Assembly: GCA_965223325.1 (NCBI GenBank)
Contig: CBDCWI010000002.1
Coordinates: forward strand, 864,001 to 928,000
From: Candidatus Multivoradales bacterium
GTDB lineage: Bacteria > Acidobacteriota > Thermoanaerobaculia > Multivoradales > Multivoraceae
DNA length: 64,000 nucleotides
Direction: 5' to 3'
Below, piece after piece: positions 28,779-56,272 of the stretch (the first letter of the stretch is position 1; each line of letters opens with the position of its first letter). Position numbers and translations under genes: made by a program. The notes under the pieces are model-generated. The model saw nothing but the letters and a program-made list of their open reading frames with translations. It did no database searches and had not been told where the DNA came from.

Positions 28779-29130
28779 CACGCCCTCCAATCAATGCCTC
28801 TTCGAGATCAAAACCCACGATCTGGTGCACCGCACGAATGAACTCGAGCCACTCCGCGCGCTCGACCCCGAGCGCATCGCGGCCGCGTTTGGTCAGTCGG
28901 TAGAAGCGCCTCCGCCGCTCCCCCGCCTTCTCCACCCAGCGACCACGAATCCAACCCCGCTCCTCGAGTCGCGAAAGCAGGGTGTAGAGCGACGCCACGT
29001 GAAACACCAGCGCGCCGTCCGAGCGCCGTTCGATCTGTTTGGCGATTTCATAGCCGTGCCGATCACGCTCGCCAAGGAGCGACAGCACCAGCATGTCGGC
29101 CGCTCCTTTCTTTCGTTCCCGATCTCGCAT
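28771..29130 (-). CDS. PadR-family transcriptional regulator (acidobacterial type)
   Basis: HGYEIAKQIE...SLYTLLSRLEERGWI...RRRFYRLT; upstream of the ADOP permease. Confidence 0.92.
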   Translation of the reverse strand: MRDRERKKGAADMLVLSLLGERDRHGYEIAKQIERRSDGALVFHVASLYTLLSRLEERGWIRGRWVEKAGERRRRFYRLTKRGRDALGVERAEWLEFIRAVHQIVGFDLEEALIGGRDV

Positions 29131-29138
29131 CGCGGACT

Positions 29139-29165
29139 CCTATAGATGGTAATACCACCTATAGG
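29139..29165. promoter_or_regulatory. Palindromic operator upstream of padR (probable autoregulatory site)
   Basis: CCTATAGATGGTA-A-TACCACCTATAGG, 13-bp arms with 1 mismatch, 8 bp upstream of the padR start. Confidence 0.7.
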
Positions 29166-29359
29166 TACGCAACAGGTACCGGCCAGGTTTCAAACGAGGC
29201 GGGCATCGTGGCGCGGCGGCCCAGGCTTCCCTCCAGAGACCTCCGAACCACCGTTCCAACGAAGGCACGAATCCGCGGCGCGCGACCAACGAATCGAAGT
29301 CTCATCAAGCACCATCAGGGCGGAAACCACAGCAGGCAACACCCGCAACGGACCGCTTG

Positions 29360-31269
29360 GATACGCCGGGATAAACCGGCATGGAGAAAGGAATGAGAGA
29401 GTCCCACCCTCGAAGGGGTAGCGACCCAGAGGGTCCCCGAGTCATGCGCCGGCTCCCGCGAGGGTGCGGTGAAGCGTTGACAGGGGCACACACAGGCCGG
29501 GTATTGAGCCGCGAAATAAGAATTTGGGAGTGCCGACGCTGTCAAGCGAAGCGGAAGGCGAGACTCCGTAGCGCGCTATCGCGAGCTCTGCGGCGACTCC
29601 CCGCGGTCGTAGACCCTGTGCATGTGTGGAATCTCCATGCGCGAGAACCGGGAGATCCGCGATCTGGCCAGTTGGGTATCTGGTCCGCATCGGGAAGGCT
29701 AGAGGCCGTAAGCCGATGACGCACGGATGGCGGAAGTCAGACAGGCCCGTAGTACCTGCGAAGTCGTCGAACAACGGTGGGAGACCAGCGGCGGAGGCGG
29801 TGGAGGGAAGGGGCCTGGCCAAGGGGAACACGGGCAAGCAAAACGCACCCCGGACACAGAGCCGGATGGAGAGTGCGAGCAATGCGCTGGGCCGTGTACG
29901 AGAAGCCGCCCGCAGGGGCAAGGAAGTGAAGTTCACAGCGCTTCTTCACCACATCACGGTCGAGCGACTCCGGAGCGCATTTGACGTGTTGCACCGAGAC
30001 GCAGCGGCAGGAGTGGACGGAGTGTCATGGAGCGAGTACGCAGAATCTTTGCTGAGCAATCTCGAGGACCTGCACTCTCGTGTCCACCGTGGGAGCTACC
30101 GGGCGAGTGCGACTCGTCGCGTCTACATCGAGAAATCGGATGGGCGGTTCCGACCGCTTGGCATCGCCACGTTGGAGGACAAGATCCTTCAGCGCGCCGT
30201 CGTCTCGGTGTTGGATGCGATCTACGAGGAAGACTTTCTCGGGTACTCATACGGATTCAGGCGAGGCCGCAGCCAGCACGATGCTTTGGATGCGCTATTC
30301 GTTGGAATCACAAAGCGGAAGGTGAACTGGGTGCTCGACGCAGACATTCGTGGGTTCTTCGATGCCCTGGACCACGAGTGGCTGGTGAAGTTTCTCGAGC
30401 ACCGTATCGGAGACCGTAGGATCCTTCGCCTCATCCAGAAATGGCTGAGGTCCGGAGTGATGGAAGACGGTAAGTGGCACGCGAGCACGCGGGGGACTCC
30501 TCAGGGGGCGACGATTTCGCCTCTCCTCGGGAACGTGTACCTGCACTACGTGCTCGATCTCTGGGTCCAGCAGTGGAGGAAACGCAACGCGCTTGGGGAC
30601 ATGATCTTCGTGCGCTACGCGGATGACTTCATCGTTGGATTTGAGAGGCAGGAGGAGGCAGAACGATTCCTCGAGGAACTGAACCTGCGACTCCGTGACT
30701 TCTCGTTGGAGATCCAACCCGAGAAGACGCGCCTGCTGGAGTTTGGCCGCTTTGCGGCCTACAACCGACGCGCGCGAGGTCTCGGGCGGCCGGAGACCTT
30801 CGAGTTTCTAGGCTTTACGCACTGCTGTGCGCAGTCTAGTCGAGGGAGGTTCTTGCTGAAGCGCATCACGAGCCGCCACCGAATCCGCAGGACACTGAAG
30901 GCTGTCGGTACGGCCCTTCTGGGACACCGACACTCGCCGCTACCAGAGCAAGGTCTCTGGCTGGGATCCGTGGTGCGAGGCTTCAATGCCTACTACGGCG
31001 TACCCGGCAACTCAGCGGCGTTGAACGCCTTTCGACAGGAGGTCATTCGGCACTGGATGCGCGCTCTGCGCCGACGCAGTGACAAAGACCGCACGTCCTG
31101 GAAACGGATGTGGGCCCTGGTGGCCCACTACCTACCCAAAGCCCGAGTCCAACATCCCTGGCCTGATGAGCGACTTGTCGTCAATACCTGAGGCAGGAGC
31201 CCAGTGCATTAGCAGTGCACGCTGGGATCTGTGCGGGGGGCGCCGGGCAACCGGCGCTCCTACCGCGAT
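29360..31269 (+). mobile_element. Group II intron (IIB-type, RT/maturase without endonuclease)
   Basis: Boundaries fixed by the uninterrupted repeat copies (GACCGCTTG|CGCCGCAAAG). EBS1 CAAGCG (29543-29548) is complementary to IBS1 CGCTTG (29354-29359). DV has the AGC triad (31198-31200) and AC bulge; DVI has a bulged A at 31262 (-8); the intron ends in AT. Confidence 0.95.
29716..31191 (+). CDS. ltrA: Group II intron reverse transcriptase/maturase
   Basis: RPLGI..LEDK, SYGFRRGRSQHDA, DADIRGFFD, GTPQGATISPLL, RYADD, FLGF; X domain present, no HNH; stop just before DV. Confidence 0.95.
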   Translation: MTHGWRKSDRPVVPAKSSNNGGRPAAEAVEGRGLAKGNTGKQNAPRTQSRMESASNALGRVREAARRGKEVKFTALLHHITVERLRSAFDVLHRDAAAGVDGVSWSEYAESLLSNLEDLHSRVHRGSYRASATRRVYIEKSDGRFRPLGIATLEDKILQRAVVSVLDAIYEEDFLGYSYGFRRGRSQHDALDALFVGITKRKVNWVLDADIRGFFDALDHEWLVKFLEHRIGDRRILRLIQKWLRSGVMEDGKWHASTRGTPQGATISPLLGNVYLHYVLDLWVQQWRKRNALGDMIFVRYADDFIVGFERQEEAERFLEELNLRLRDFSLEIQPEKTRLLEFGRFAAYNRRARGLGRPETFEFLGFTHCCAQSSRGRFLLKRITSRHRIRRTLKAVGTALLGHRHSPLPEQGLWLGSVVRGFNAYYGVPGNSAALNAFRQEVIRHWMRALRRRSDKDRTSWKRMWALVAHYLPKARVQHPWPDERLVVNT

Positions 31270-31917
31270 CGCCGCAAAGGTGATCAGTAGCAGGCGCCGT
31301 GGTAACGACCCAACGCATCTGCGAGGTCACCGCCCCACACCCACCGCAAGCCAGACGGAGAGCGCCAACCAAAGGCCGCTACCACGGCACCGACAGGCTT
31401 CCCTCCAGAGACCTCCGAACCACCGTTCCAACGAAGGCACGAATCCGCGGCGCGCGACCAACGAATCGAAGTCTCATCAAGCACCATCAGGGCGGAAACC
31501 ACAGCAGGCAACACCCGCAACGGACCGCTTGCGCCGCAAAGGTGATCAGTAGCAGGCGCCGTGGTAACGGCCCAACGCATCTGCGAGGTCACCGCCCCAC
31601 ACCCACCGCAAGCCAGACGGAGAGCGCCAACCAAAGGCCGCTACCACGGCACCGACAGGCTTCCCTCCAGAGACCTCCGAACCACCGTTCCAACGAAGGC
31701 ACGAATCCGCGGCGCGCGACCAACGAATCGAAGTCTCATCAAGCACCATCAGGGCGGAAACCACAGCAGGCAACACGCGCAACGGACCGCTTGCGCCGCA
31801 AAGGTGATCAGTAGCAGGCGCCGTGGTAACGACCCAACGCATCTGCGAGGTCACCGCCCCACACCCACCGCAAGCCAGACGGAGAGCGCCAACCAAAGGC
31901 CGCTACCACGGCGACTG

Positions 31918-34125
31918 CTACAACCGTTCTTCGATGAACTCCGTCATACGACGGTAGAGGTCGTAGACCAGGTTCGGGTCGCGCACGCCGTGGCGGGAGC
32001 GCGGGTAGACCATCAGGTCGAAATCCTTGCCAGCCTTCTGGAGCGCGTAGACCAGTTGGACGGTGTTCTGGAAGTGGACGTTGTCGTCCATGAGGCCGTG
32101 CAGAATCAGCAGGTCTCCGTGCAGGTTCGCGGCCGCCGCGGCGACCGAGGTACCGGCGTAGCCCTCCTTGTTGTTCTGCGGCCGCGCCATGTAGCGCTCG
32201 GTGTAGATCGTGTCGTAGAGGCCCCAATCTGTCACCGGCGCGCCGGCGATTCCGGCCTTGAAGCTCTTGCTGTGGGTCAAGGCGTAGGAAGCCATGAAGC
32301 CACCGTAGCTCCAACCCCAGATGCCGATGCGCTCGCTGTCAACCCATGGCTGCTTGCGCAACCACGCGATGCCGTCTTCGATGTCTTGCAGTTCGATGAC
32401 GCCGAGCTGACGGTAGGCCTTCCAGGTCGGCGCAATTCCCTTGCCGGAAGCCGAGCGGTTGTCGCACATCCAGATCACGTAGCCGCGCTGCGCCAGCATC
32501 TGGTGCCACAGATAGCGATCACCGCCCCATCGGTTCTCCACCACCGGGGCGTGCGGGCCACCATAGTTGTACTGCAGAACGGGGTACTTCTTCTTGGCGT
32601 CGAAGTTCGGCGGCTTGATGAGCGAGGCCTCCATGACGAAACCGTCGCGAGTCGGAACCTGCAGAAACTCGATGCTGCCCCAATCGAAATCGGCAAGCGT
32701 CGCGGGACCTTCGGTGTCGAGTTCGGCCAGTACCGAGCCGTCGGCACTGTGGAGACGCAATTGCCAAGGCGTCGACACGTCACTCCAGGTGTCGAGGTAA
32801 CGCTTCATGTTCGGCGCAAAACGCACGCGGTGGTGGCCCGGACGCTTCGAGATGCGCCTGCGCGCGCCGTCGGCGAGCGCGATGCTCCACAGTTGACTGC
32901 CCGTCGGTCCGGCCTCGGTGGTGTTGATGTAGGCGACTCCGGCTTCCTCGTCGACACCGTGCAGGGTTTCGACTTCCCACTCACCATCGGTGAGCTGCTC
33001 GAGCAGGCGGCCTTTACGACTGTAGTGGTAGAGGTGCTGGAAACCGGTGCGCTCTGAAAGCCACAGGAACGAACCGTCGGCCAGCCACTCTGGCTCACCC
33101 GTGACATTGACGAACGCCGGCGATTGCTCTCTGAACAACCGCTCGACTTCGCCTGTCTCTGGGTCGGCCAACAACAAATCGAGCCAGCGCTGCTCGCGAT
33201 CCTGAACCTGGACAACGATGCGATCACTCTCAGGAGTCCAACCGACCCTGACGATCAGATGTTCGATCGGCAGGTACTCGCTGGTATCGATCCAACGTGG
33301 TTCACCGCCGGTGGCATCGACCACCGCTAGACGAACGGTGGGGTTGGGACTGCCGGCCTTGGGGTAGTTGGTGACTTCGAGATCGAGCTCGGTGGGCAAA
33401 TGATCTACCACCGTGAACTCGCGCACCGGCGACTCGTCGAGCTGGATGAAGACCAGTTGAGAACCGTCGGGACTCCACCAATAGCCGCGGAAGTTGCCAC
33501 GACCGTAGACCTCCTCCTGATAGACCCAGTCGAGCCGACCATGAAACAGCTCGGGGCCGCCGCCCTCGGTGACCTGCCAACTGCGCGCGGTCTCGGGGTC
33601 GGCGAGCCAGAGGTCGTTGTGACGCACGAAGCTGACCAGGCGACCGTCGGGGCTCCAGGCGGCTTCATGCTCGACCGCTTTGTCGGTCGTCAGTCGTACT
33701 GCGCGCTCGCTGCCACGCCGCCAGACGAACAAGTCATTCGAGTGCTCGAAGAGGACCGCGGAACGATTCGGAGCCAGGGTCATCGGCCCAGCGACCATCT
33801 CGGCCGCGCGCTTGGGTCCGAGCCCCGGAACCGCCACAAGGGCCTTCTCTATCGCCCTGGGCTCGAACAGCGGTACGGCTTCGAGGTCCTTGCCCTCGAG
33901 CAGCCAGAGGCCCTTCCCCTGTGAGCCGGACCGGCGCTCCCCCAGACTTCCATCGTCGAGCCAGGTGAGCTGCCTGGTGGCACCGTCGAACGACTTGCGC
34001 ACGGCGTCGTCCGGGCTGAACAACATCTCGACATCCAGGTGCCTGTCCTCTGCGGCAGCGATGGTTGGAAGGAGCACCAACACAACGGTCGTCAGCACGG
34101 CTCGGCCGGTTCTGCGTCCGGTCAT
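31918..34125 (-). CDS. S9B dipeptidyl peptidase IV family serine peptidase, secreted
   Basis: DWVYQEE, GWSYGG, DDNVH, RHG catalytic motifs; beta-propeller N-terminus; signal peptide. Confidence 0.93.
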   Translation of the reverse strand: MTGRRTGRAVLTTVVLVLLPTIAAAEDRHLDVEMLFSPDDAVRKSFDGATRQLTWLDDGSLGERRSGSQGKGLWLLEGKDLEAVPLFEPRAIEKALVAVPGLGPKRAAEMVAGPMTLAPNRSAVLFEHSNDLFVWRRGSERAVRLTTDKAVEHEAAWSPDGRLVSFVRHNDLWLADPETARSWQVTEGGGPELFHGRLDWVYQEEVYGRGNFRGYWWSPDGSQLVFIQLDESPVREFTVVDHLPTELDLEVTNYPKAGSPNPTVRLAVVDATGGEPRWIDTSEYLPIEHLIVRVGWTPESDRIVVQVQDREQRWLDLLLADPETGEVERLFREQSPAFVNVTGEPEWLADGSFLWLSERTGFQHLYHYSRKGRLLEQLTDGEWEVETLHGVDEEAGVAYINTTEAGPTGSQLWSIALADGARRRISKRPGHHRVRFAPNMKRYLDTWSDVSTPWQLRLHSADGSVLAELDTEGPATLADFDWGSIEFLQVPTRDGFVMEASLIKPPNFDAKKKYPVLQYNYGGPHAPVVENRWGGDRYLWHQMLAQRGYVIWMCDNRSASGKGIAPTWKAYRQLGVIELQDIEDGIAWLRKQPWVDSERIGIWGWSYGGFMASYALTHSKSFKAGIAGAPVTDWGLYDTIYTERYMARPQNNKEGYAGTSVAAAAANLHGDLLILHGLMDDNVHFQNTVQLVYALQKAGKDFDLMVYPRSRHGVRDPNLVYDLYRRMTEFIEERL

Positions 34126-55540: not shown

Positions 55541-55807
55541 ATGGCTTTCCCCGGCGGCAGCGCCTACACCATGTCCCACCAGATCTCCGAAGGCTACATC
55601 CTGGTCACCGATCGCACCTGGTCACGGATGAACAAGCAAGAACTCGACAAGCTCACCTTCGAGTTTCAGAAGCTACTGCGTGAGTTGCGCGCCAACCAAC
55701 CAGACGGCGACGACACGATGGCCATTCAAAAGCGCAACCGCAAGATCTCACGCGTCAACACCTCGATGTCCATGCTGAAGTCGTATCGCCTCCGCCGCAA
55801 GGTGTAG
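55541..55807 (+). CDS. Small hypothetical basic helical protein
   Basis: 88-aa ORF with strongly genome-like codon usage; no motif recognised. Confidence 0.75.
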   Translation: MAFPGGSAYTMSHQISEGYILVTDRTWSRMNKQELDKLTFEFQKLLRELRANQPDGDDTMAIQKRNRKISRVNTSMSMLKSYRLRRKV

Positions 55808-56272
55808 CGGGGGCCATGGTGGTGCGGCCTCTGTGAAGCGTTGCGTGAGCGGGTAGCGCGTTACGGTTGGGGGTGCGACCGCGCGATGTCGGTGCGTGGT
55901 TACCATGGCCCCCGCTACCGTCACTCTTGCGGCGCAAGCGCTACATAGCGCGGGCCGAATGCCTCGGCGCACGCCCTGCTGCTCCCCTCGATGCCTTCGA
56001 AAGACCGGCGCGCGCCGCGGATTCCGGGCTCCGTTGAAACTCCTGTTCCGTGCTAACGCCCGCCGTCCTGCCAAACCTGATGGGTTTCGGCCTCTGTGAG
56101 GCCTTGCGTAGGCGGGTAGCGCGTTACGGTTGGGGGTGCGACCGCGCGATGTCGGTGCGTGGTTGCCATGGCCCCCGCTACCGTCACTCTTGCGGCGCAA
56201 GCGCTCCAACCCGCCGGCCGACCACCTCGGCGCACGCCCTGCTGAGGCCACCGATGCCTTCGAACGGCCGGC
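55804..56272 (+). repeat. Array B: about 1.8 diverged tandem 263-bp units, homologous to array A
   Basis: GGGTAGCGCGTTACGG at 55851 and 56114; perfect 17-bp inverted repeat 55804-55820/55902-55918; shares TTGCGGCGCAAGCG and CGCGCGCCGCGGATTC with the array A minus strand. Confidence 0.9.

Follow-up and report, generated by a model that had tools for sequence, protein, structure and literature searches.

A predicted endonuclease-less group II intron inserted at one position in the core of a tandem repeat family of Candidatus Multivoradales bacterium

The intron and its locus

A stretch of 64,000 nucleotides from Candidatus Multivoradales bacterium (assembly GCA_965223325.1, contig CBDCWI010000002.1, positions 864,001 to 928,000 of the forward strand) was analysed and is referred to as the window. 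It carries a predicted group II intron within the first unit of a tandem non-coding repeat, array A, which has three tandem units with a 262-nt period. The assembled genome totals 6.69 Mb and consists of two contigs, C1 and C2, with the window on C2. Coordinates without a contig name are window positions, and a vertical bar within a sequence marks the insertion point. The occupied unit of array A was compared to its two empty downstream units, giving a 1910-nt insertion at 29360-31269. Both junctions were unambiguous, with ...GGACCGCTTG on the 5' side and CGCCGCAAAG on the 3' side. The interval 29354-31279 reported in an initial annotation of this DNA covers the insertion together with the six bases of intron-binding site 1 (IBS1) on one side and 10 nt of 3' exon on the other. 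The features of the locus are as follows.

29254-29359, plus strand: first repeat unit of array A, 5' portion, forming the 5' exon; the nhmmer repeat profile starts at C2:893254 (window 29254)
29354-29359, plus strand: IBS1, CGCTTG, the exact reverse complement of exon-binding site 1 (EBS1) and present at 14 of 14 copies
29360-31269, plus strand: group II intron, 1910 nt, 5' GAUACG ... GAU 3', boundaries from the empty-unit comparison
29398-29616, plus strand: domain I core, match to Rfam RF02005 (group-II-D1D4-6)
29543-29548, plus strand: EBS1, CAAGCG, in the variable terminal hairpin loop of the RF02005 model, domain I
29716-31191, plus strand: intron-encoded protein (IEP), 491 amino acids, reverse transcriptase/maturase with no endonuclease domain, from translation, Pfam and NCBIfam
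31197-31229, plus strand: predicted domain V, starting GAGC (AGC triad), named on the authors' own reading
31233-31266, plus strand: predicted domain VI, from its fold, with UA bulged at 31261-31262, the A at 31262 being the candidate branch point
31270-31917, plus strand: rest of array A (3' exon, approximately 2.5 units), with empty sites at 31531/31532 and 31793/31794

The sequence at 29254-29359 matched the upstream halves of both empty units of array A. The RF02005 match scored 180.6 bits (E 9e-53) over the whole model length, with a gathering score of 49. The IEP matched RVT_1 alone in Pfam (9e-39) and the NCBIfam group II intron reverse transcriptase/maturase model TIGR04416 at 342.6 bits (cut-off 300) over residues 87-454. 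As this match stops at residue 454 of 491 there is no space for an endonuclease domain. The last 78 nt of the intron (31192-31269) folded with a z-score of -3.9 into two hairpins, one resembling domain V and the other domain VI, the bulged UA of the latter being 8 nt from the ...GAU 3' end. On these predictions the ribozyme parts are intact. The closest plasmid relatives of the IEP were approximately 59% identical (Pseudomonas, Burkholderia), and searches of plasmids and the PDB yielded no intron class; the paper describing Rfam likewise assigns no class to D1D4-6. A small hairpin at 29366-29379, CCGGGAUAAACCGG, follows the 5' splice site and precedes the first stem of domain I, and it was invariant in 12 of 12 aligned introns.

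Copies of the intron in the genome

Copies and their flanks were collected across the genome, a check proposed in the initial annotation, and this placed 13 of the 14 full-length copies in one repeat family and one at an ectopic site offering only IBS1 plus C. Twelve copies were 100% identical and two scored slightly lower. The 491-amino-acid open reading frame (ORF) was open in all 14. Contig depth in one public run was approximately 218 over the intron compared to 14-23 over unique flanks, which fits about 14 copies. The identity or near identity of the copies points to a recent burst.

Repeat membership was assigned from an iterated nhmmer profile of the repeat and from the flanks of all copies. 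The 13 repeat-borne copies were inserted at the same position of the unit (CGCTTG|CG), and all 13 had the same orientation relative to it. They were found in 13 different arrays, one each, in the first, middle or last unit. One intron per array was considered as a sign of immunity and this was rejected, as random placement gives the same outcome with P = 0.25. Beyond a core of approximately 20-30 nt the flanks differed strongly among the 13 occupied arrays, which argues for independent insertions and not for duplicated blocks.

The 14th copy was located at C2:2349730-2351639 on the minus strand, at GAGCGCTTG|CAGTTGG in unrelated sequence. It lay in sense orientation at approximately codon 19 of an ORF for a GNAT-like acetyltransferase (frame derived by hand). 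This site shared only GCGCTTG|C with the other insertion sites and had CA at +1/+2.

A 5'-truncated 3' fragment of 238 nt, 97% identical to the intron, was present at C2:4242250-4242488. It adjoined CGCCGCAAGTGTGA... of another repeat unit at the same insertion position, and the sequence upstream of it was unrelated and AT-rich. The fragment is taken to be an older, abortive insertion, 5' truncation being the usual mark of incomplete reverse transcription. A remnant of 97% identity would place the intron in the genome before the current burst.

The contigs of four public runs contained no informative empty-site joint. A single long joint from 29286 to 31526 was out of register with the repeat and was judged to come from another array.

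Target-site preference

The sequence CGCTTG|C was found 1811 times in the genome, 1797 sites being empty and 14 occupied. Repeat units held 132 of these sites on the correct strand (119 empty, 13 occupied). The location of 13 of 14 copies in 132 of 1811 sites has a binomial probability of approximately 2e-14, and this agrees with the proposal of the initial annotation that the repeat serves as a multi-copy landing pad. Only one of the approximately 1680 sites outside repeats was occupied. For the longer CGCTTG|CG, 12 of 119 sites in repeats were occupied and 107 were empty, compared to none of approximately 560 outside repeats. In two neighbouring arrays whose units read CTTG|CC none of eight sites was occupied, and the sole variant unit with CTTG|CG carried the intron. 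A G at +2 thus appears to be a required part of the target.

Many perfect sites were empty, including 19 copies of ACGGACCGCTTG|CGCCGCAA. With roughly nine tenths of the repeat sites empty, the intron would be in an early, unsaturated phase.

Within the window the 14-mer CGCTTGCGCCGCAA, described in the initial annotation as invariant in both arrays, occurred four times, compared to a mean of 0.11 in dinucleotide shuffles, none of 100 of which reached four. The four empty sites predicted there match these four positions exactly. Array B, the second array of the window, has two units 263 nt apart which are 89% identical. The context upstream of its sites is GAGCGCTTG / GTAGCGCTTG, which differs from the GGACCGCTTG of array A.

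31526-31539 and 31788-31801, plus strand: 14-mer CGCTTGCGCCGCAA in array A
55825-56272, minus strand: array B, two units, empty sites at 55935/55934 and 56198/56197
55927-55940 and 56190-56203, minus strand: 14-mer CGCTTGCGCCGCAA in array B

EBS1/IBS1 pairing and homologous introns

When species-representative genomes were searched with the IEP, 15 homologue loci were obtained at approximately 49-62% identity, with one at 36%. They were located in metagenome-assembled genomes of gammaproteobacterial, Solirubrobacterales and other origin. The 5' 370 nt of 11 homologous introns were aligned with the present intron, giving 12 introns in total. In this alignment the EBS1 loop column varied in concert with the six final bases of the exon, with four EBS1/IBS1 combinations.

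CAAGCG/CGCTTG: present intron
TAAGCG/CGCTTA: seven gammaproteobacterial copies
TAACCG/CGGTTA: one gammaproteobacterial copy
CCAGGT with ACTTGG or ATCTGG: three Solirubrobacterales copies, using G-U pairs

The covariation supports the EBS1 assignment. The pairing of CAAGCG at 29543-29548 with IBS1 CGCTTG, first suggested in the initial annotation, is upheld by exact reverse complementarity, by its place in the loop of the Rfam model and by its covariation in the homologues.

The gammaproteobacterial and Solirubrobacterales homologues had GUACG and GUAGCG as their 5' ends, which suggests that the odd GAUACG start of the present intron is a trait of the lineage and not damage to this copy.

The flanks of the homologues were also compared. 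All four Solirubrobacterales loci with readable flanks had the intron at the same point of a repeated ORF whose copies have diverged. Read by eye, this ORF looks like the N-terminus of an insertion sequence (IS) transposase (...LLPP...DWLPE.HL|.W...). The eight gammaproteobacterial insertions shared a loose motif from approximately -25 to -1 (..AAGRTGA.TTGG....CGCTTA|C) with flanks that were otherwise unrelated, and a longer upstream element was common to four of the eight. The initial annotation had named homologues in unrelated sequence sharing only IBS1 as the finding that would speak against its reading; the homologues, at IEP identities of approximately 56-62%, were instead in multicopy or motif-sharing targets. 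The clade as a whole is taken to use extended homing sites, often in multicopy DNA.

The repeat family

The repeat family comprises approximately 190-200 units in approximately 65 arrays or solo loci. These are scattered along the entire chromosome and make up approximately 0.7% of the genome. Arrays contained between one and seven units as direct repeats with periods of 130-326 nt, and the units within one array were nearly identical. The core of the unit is conserved over approximately 130 nt (...GAATCCGCGGCGCGCGAC...CAGGGCG...GGACCGCTTGCGCCGCAAGAGTGAC.CTAGCG...). Each unit has a stem of 17-18 bp, NTAG-N10-CGTGGTA ... ACCACG-N10'-CTAN, enclosing an insert of 75-80 nt. The arms of the stem are array-specific yet complementary: 37 distinct stems contained 613 Watson-Crick pairs, 17 G-T pairs, four A-C pairs and 32 others. 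Wobbles were thus present on the intron-sense strand as 17 G-T compared to four A-C mismatches, six of the 17 being in one array. This skew suggests the intron-sense strand as the folding or exposed strand, either as RNA or as single-stranded DNA.

RNAalifold analysis of 32 representative units predicted a long-range helix with compensatory changes, in which GCGGCGCG(CG) pairs with (CGC)UUG|CGCCGC. One pair of this helix was GC in 21 sequences, CG in 10 and GU in one, and another was CG in 29 and GC in three. The intron site is between two paired positions in the 3' strand of the helix. The palindrome TTGCG-C-CGCAA, within which the initial annotation placed the intron, is less well supported as the relevant structure than this helix. 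Thermodynamic folding and averaged pair probabilities of 39 representative units gave no coherent global fold, and besides the long-range helix only a few short helices recurred. Rfam 15 covariance models returned only chance-level matches on the empty units (5-15 bits, at E up to 10), which indicates that the repeat is not a described RNA family.

A sub-family was observed, for example at C2:4367075, C2:3962448, C2:4105450 and C2:510982, in which CAAGAGTGA after the intron site is replaced by runs of the kind CCCCCTTGAGGGGG..CCAGGGGG, forming a G/C-run hairpin module. Two sub-family units with this module carry the intron.

A DNA search of 40 relatives did not detect the repeat, giving one 48-nt match (E 9e-5) in one relative, and neither did a covariance model applied to 60 relatives with only 55 candidates scored per genome. 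Neither the repeat core pattern nor the 5' end pattern of the intron had a match in the JGI metagenomes, and the IEP was absent from the same-genus genome searched. The same-genus S9 peptidase ortholog (59% identical) of the gene beside array A had no array behind its TAG stop. The repeat family looks species-specific and possibly mobile.

Arrays at gene ends

The gene context of the arrays was taken from a crude ORF picker based on GC content at third codon positions, not from annotation. At the 3' end in the intron-sense orientation 60 of 65 arrays faced a convergent gene, the repeat profile stopping approximately 20-30 nt from it. Once the 3' stem arm of the last unit is counted the arrays run flush to the stop codons. 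The adjoining genes were mutually unrelated and included a peptidase, a tRNA synthetase, outer-membrane receptors, a dehydrogenase and others. In 46 of 60 arrays at least 12 of 14 nt formed an inverted repeat that began one base before the stop codon. The stop codon, paired along with that base, forms the foot of the stem of the last unit, and its type covaried with the partner arm (TAG/CTA, TGA/TCA and TAA/TTA). In the window the array B gene end is near 55806-55825 and array A is followed by a peptidase gene.

31918-34125, minus strand: convergent gene for an S9/DPP-IV-type peptidase, its TAG stop (31918-31920) being the base of the last array A stem

The stops of the array-adjoining genes were TAG in 45 cases, TGA in 13 and TAA in two, compared to 38% TAG, 56% TGA and 6% TAA genome-wide. 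The tetranucleotide CTAG was depleted, at 0.22 of its expected number, with stop codons accounting for 814 of the 4857 CTAGs.

A 158-bp transposable element of the miniature inverted-repeat type (MITE) with inverted ends TACCCCGTACCATTGAAAC and CTAG target duplications was present in 39 copies, for example at the gene ends C1:537252-539021 and C2:994069-997485. It is unrelated to the repeat family and was used as a control. A called stop codon was flush with 22 of the 39 MITE copies, so the pattern seen in the arrays needs no translation-linked mechanism. Recognition of the stop codon by a translation-linked process was set aside on account of this equally flush ordinary MITE and the depletion of CTAG.

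The cumulative GC skew decreased monotonically along the whole of C1, and its turning points on C2 were at 0.361 and 3.507 Mb. Such a profile is compatible with a single circular 6.69-Mb chromosome in which C1 lies inverted between the two C2 ends, with a probable origin near C2:3.507 Mb and a probable terminus near C2:0.361 Mb. The 65 arrays showed no replication-strand bias (31 to 34). The upstream gene was co-oriented with the intron in 29 of 65 arrays and in eight of 13 occupied arrays. A sigma-70 promoter scan of 28900-32100 returned no promoter-like sites, and terminator-like hairpins there were weak only.

Interpretation of the insertion pattern

The observed boundaries, copy number, site identity, enrichment in repeats and EBS1/IBS1 pairing make it highly probable that the intron, which lacks an endonuclease domain, retrohomes into the conserved core of a species-specific tandem repeat. 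As part of that explanation the element itself would, with similarly good confidence, be a group II intron that is intact and recently active. The homing site would be a conserved segment of approximately 20 nt, about GGACCGCTTG|CGCCGCAA, in the repeat core. The intron RNA reads CGCTTG by EBS1, as the covariation shows, and very probably also reads the C at +1. We infer its splicing, its mobility by reverse splicing, the priming of cDNA synthesis and the recognition of +1/+2 and further positions. The extra specificity would come from contacts made by the IEP or from the fold of the target strand. Approximately 130 sites in one orientation, in non-coding DNA behind stop codons, would have allowed 13 repeat-borne copies to accumulate without gene breakage. 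The ectopic copy in sense orientation within a gene would represent occasional retrotransposition, as expected.

Several results weigh against this explanation. No EBS2 partner for exon positions -7 to -13 was found in the present intron or its homologues when the 12-intron alignment was read by eye. The intron 5' end, GAUACG, departs from the canonical GUGYG, and the Rfam D5-D6 family RF00029 gave no match to the intron even at E up to 1. With origin and terminus placed by GC skew, the sense strand of the 14 copies was leading in eight and lagging in six, giving no sign of the fork-priming bias that has been reported for some endonuclease-less introns and no support to the link with replication forks drawn in the initial annotation. 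In 60 of 65 arrays the intron-sense strand ran antisense to the neighbouring gene, and the intron could therefore be transcribed only by read-through from upstream or from a further promoter.

Targeting by structure is a rather unlikely alternative, in which the intron recognizes the repeat unit as a folded single strand of DNA or RNA and not by an extended linear sequence, as class C introns recognize terminator or attC hairpins. The insertion site does lie inside the 3' strand of the long-range helix, whose compensatory changes include the pair with GC 21, CG 10 and GU 1. The wobble counts (17 G-T, four A-C) make the intron-sense strand seemingly the one that folds, and the intron is oriented to match it in 13 of 13 repeat-borne copies; with six of the 17 wobbles from one array, however, they are not independent. 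The helix would also have to open for EBS1 to pair. Class C introns have an IBS1 of 3-4 nt, insert directly after a hairpin and carry a CGC triad in domain V. The AGC triad and 6-nt IBS1 of the present intron are unlike these features as generally held for the class, and the ectopic and homologue sites, read by eye, have no comparable fold.

It is improbable that the pattern reflects survival and not targeting, with an intron that reads approximately 7 nt (CGCTTG plus C), inserts everywhere and is removed from genes by selection, the repeats being a safe harbour by survival. The lack of an EBS2 in the alignment read by eye would be expected of such an intron, as would the copy at a site sharing only GCGCTTG|C. 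Approximately 88% of the genome was called coding by the crude ORF caller, so random sites would mostly hit genes. However, the near-identical copies indicate a recent burst, with little time for selection, and sense insertions in genes can splice, one such copy being tolerated. Occupation of one of approximately 1680 non-repeat sites compared to 13 of 132 repeat sites also argues for targeting, as do the 5' flanks of the homologues, which are alike to approximately -25 across otherwise unrelated loci.

Spread of the copies with their flanks by recombination, gene conversion or array duplication is very improbable: tandem arrays recombine readily and units within an array are nearly identical, but the flanks of the 13 arrays differ strongly beyond the core of approximately 20-30 nt while the introns are near-identical, each occupied array has exactly one intron in a varying unit, and the 5'-truncated copy points to reverse transcription.

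Comparison with known systems

Bacterial group II introns are generally believed to persist by sheltering in DNA that the host can spare. Retrohoming of the present intron into the repeat core would be a variation on known homing into multicopy 'safe' DNA, the repeat element being the newer and less understood component. The full-text literature searches made returned no description of a group II intron homing into the core of a tandem intergenic repeat family.

RmInt1 of Sinorhizobium meliloti, which homes into ISRm2011-2, resembles the present intron in its endonuclease-less IEP, its repeated and dispensable site, its many copies and its partial occupancy; the lack of an endonuclease and the multicopy homing site are described in the available excerpts of PMC1802570 and PMC5010178. 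Partial occupancy of multicopy homing sites is also described for introns of Enterobacteriales in an excerpt of PMC3522654. The RmInt1 pattern is echoed in the transposase-like repeated ORF (identified by eye) at four of four readable Solirubrobacterales homologues. Unlike the transposase gene targeted by RmInt1, the target of the present intron is a non-coding tandem repeat behind stop codons. The present intron also differs from RmInt1 in having no lagging-strand bias (eight to six), no EBS2 that was found in the alignment and a 5' end of GAUACG.

Class C (IIC) introns, as far as the excerpts of PMC4424553 and PMC12584367 describe them, share with the present intron a repeated, structured non-coding motif at gene ends and an endonuclease-less IEP. 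In contrast to them, the present intron has a 6-nt IBS1 and the AGC triad in domain V, is inserted inside a conserved block and not just after a generic hairpin, and lies antisense to the adjacent gene and not downstream of it in sense. Three target specificities of bacterial introns are distinguished in the part of PMC4424553 that was available, namely homing sites, terminators and attC. The excerpt of PMC12584367 reports IIB1 introns associated with stop and start codons and stresses intergenic and mobile-element locations.

[quoted passage not shown] In Pseudomonas putida KT2440 two of nine group II intron copies were associated with REPs, according to an excerpt of PMC1525189. Unlike REPs, which are 20-40 nt, the present units are 130-326 nt with a core of approximately 130 nt and a stem of 17-18 bp around an insert of 75-80 nt. 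The arrays are direct repeats, not units of alternating orientation as in REPs and BIMEs, and an NTAG head is present.

The system amounts to an unusually clean natural experiment, with one intron in a recent burst, 12 filled sites among 119 near-identical candidates, and one ectopic event. Natural variants of the target include G or C at +2, differences in the upstream context, and the presence or absence of the distal helix strand in the unit. This makes directly testable what beyond EBS1 guides an endonuclease-less intron, and it offers a system for the dynamics of site saturation. The analysis also uncovered a large repeat family, species-specific by the searches above, with covarying stems that take in the stop codons of unrelated genes.

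Possible origin of the repeat

The occurrence of identical stem arms in several arrays at different genes indicates that the arms travel with the element, and the 5'-border sequences of the arrays were locus-specific. On the simplest reading the repeat would be, or derive from, a non-autonomous element that landed on NTAG and was then amplified in tandem. The description of the target in the initial annotation as a host non-coding hairpin repeat holds as far as a non-coding repeat is concerned, but the word host is perhaps too kind for a family that looks species-specific and possibly mobile.

The genome had 28 matches to Pfam Y1_Tnp in ORFs mostly of approximately 310-410 amino acids. Many were clustered near both contig ends (C2:4.455-4.487 Mb and C1:2.126-2.144 Mb) and others were scattered. 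One Y1_Tnp match adjoins the array at C1:1243826. REPs are associated with a RAYT gene; one of the Y1-like proteins was scored against the RAYT model and reached 37 bits, below the curated cut-off of 80, and a link between these genes and the repeats was not shown. The Y1-like genes as movers of the repeat are a lead only.

A broader scenario is offered tentatively, as less likely than not. Instead of inert host DNA, the repeat may be a mobile element of a kind not described before that folds as one strand, with a core of approximately 130 nt, a long stem and an NTAG foot, landing at TAG-type sites and hence flush with stop codons, and growing in tandem. Its movement might depend on the expanded set of Y1 (HUH) transposase-like genes in the genome, or it might serve as an antisense RNA to approximately 60 gene ends. 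In that case the intron would live as a specialized parasite of the element, reading the helix of the folded strand and sharing that strand. If true, this would be a nested system of a retroelement on a repeat.

At the gene ends C2:89312-90916 and C2:952816-954489 similar stop-codon stems (CTAGCGAGGGTCGCGGTG ... CCACGACCCTCGCTAG) were observed around a different core (..CTTCCCGGCAAGCAGCGCC..), and both were missed by the repeat profile. Stop-codon stems with the CTTCCCGGCAAGCAGCGCC core may represent a sister repeat family.

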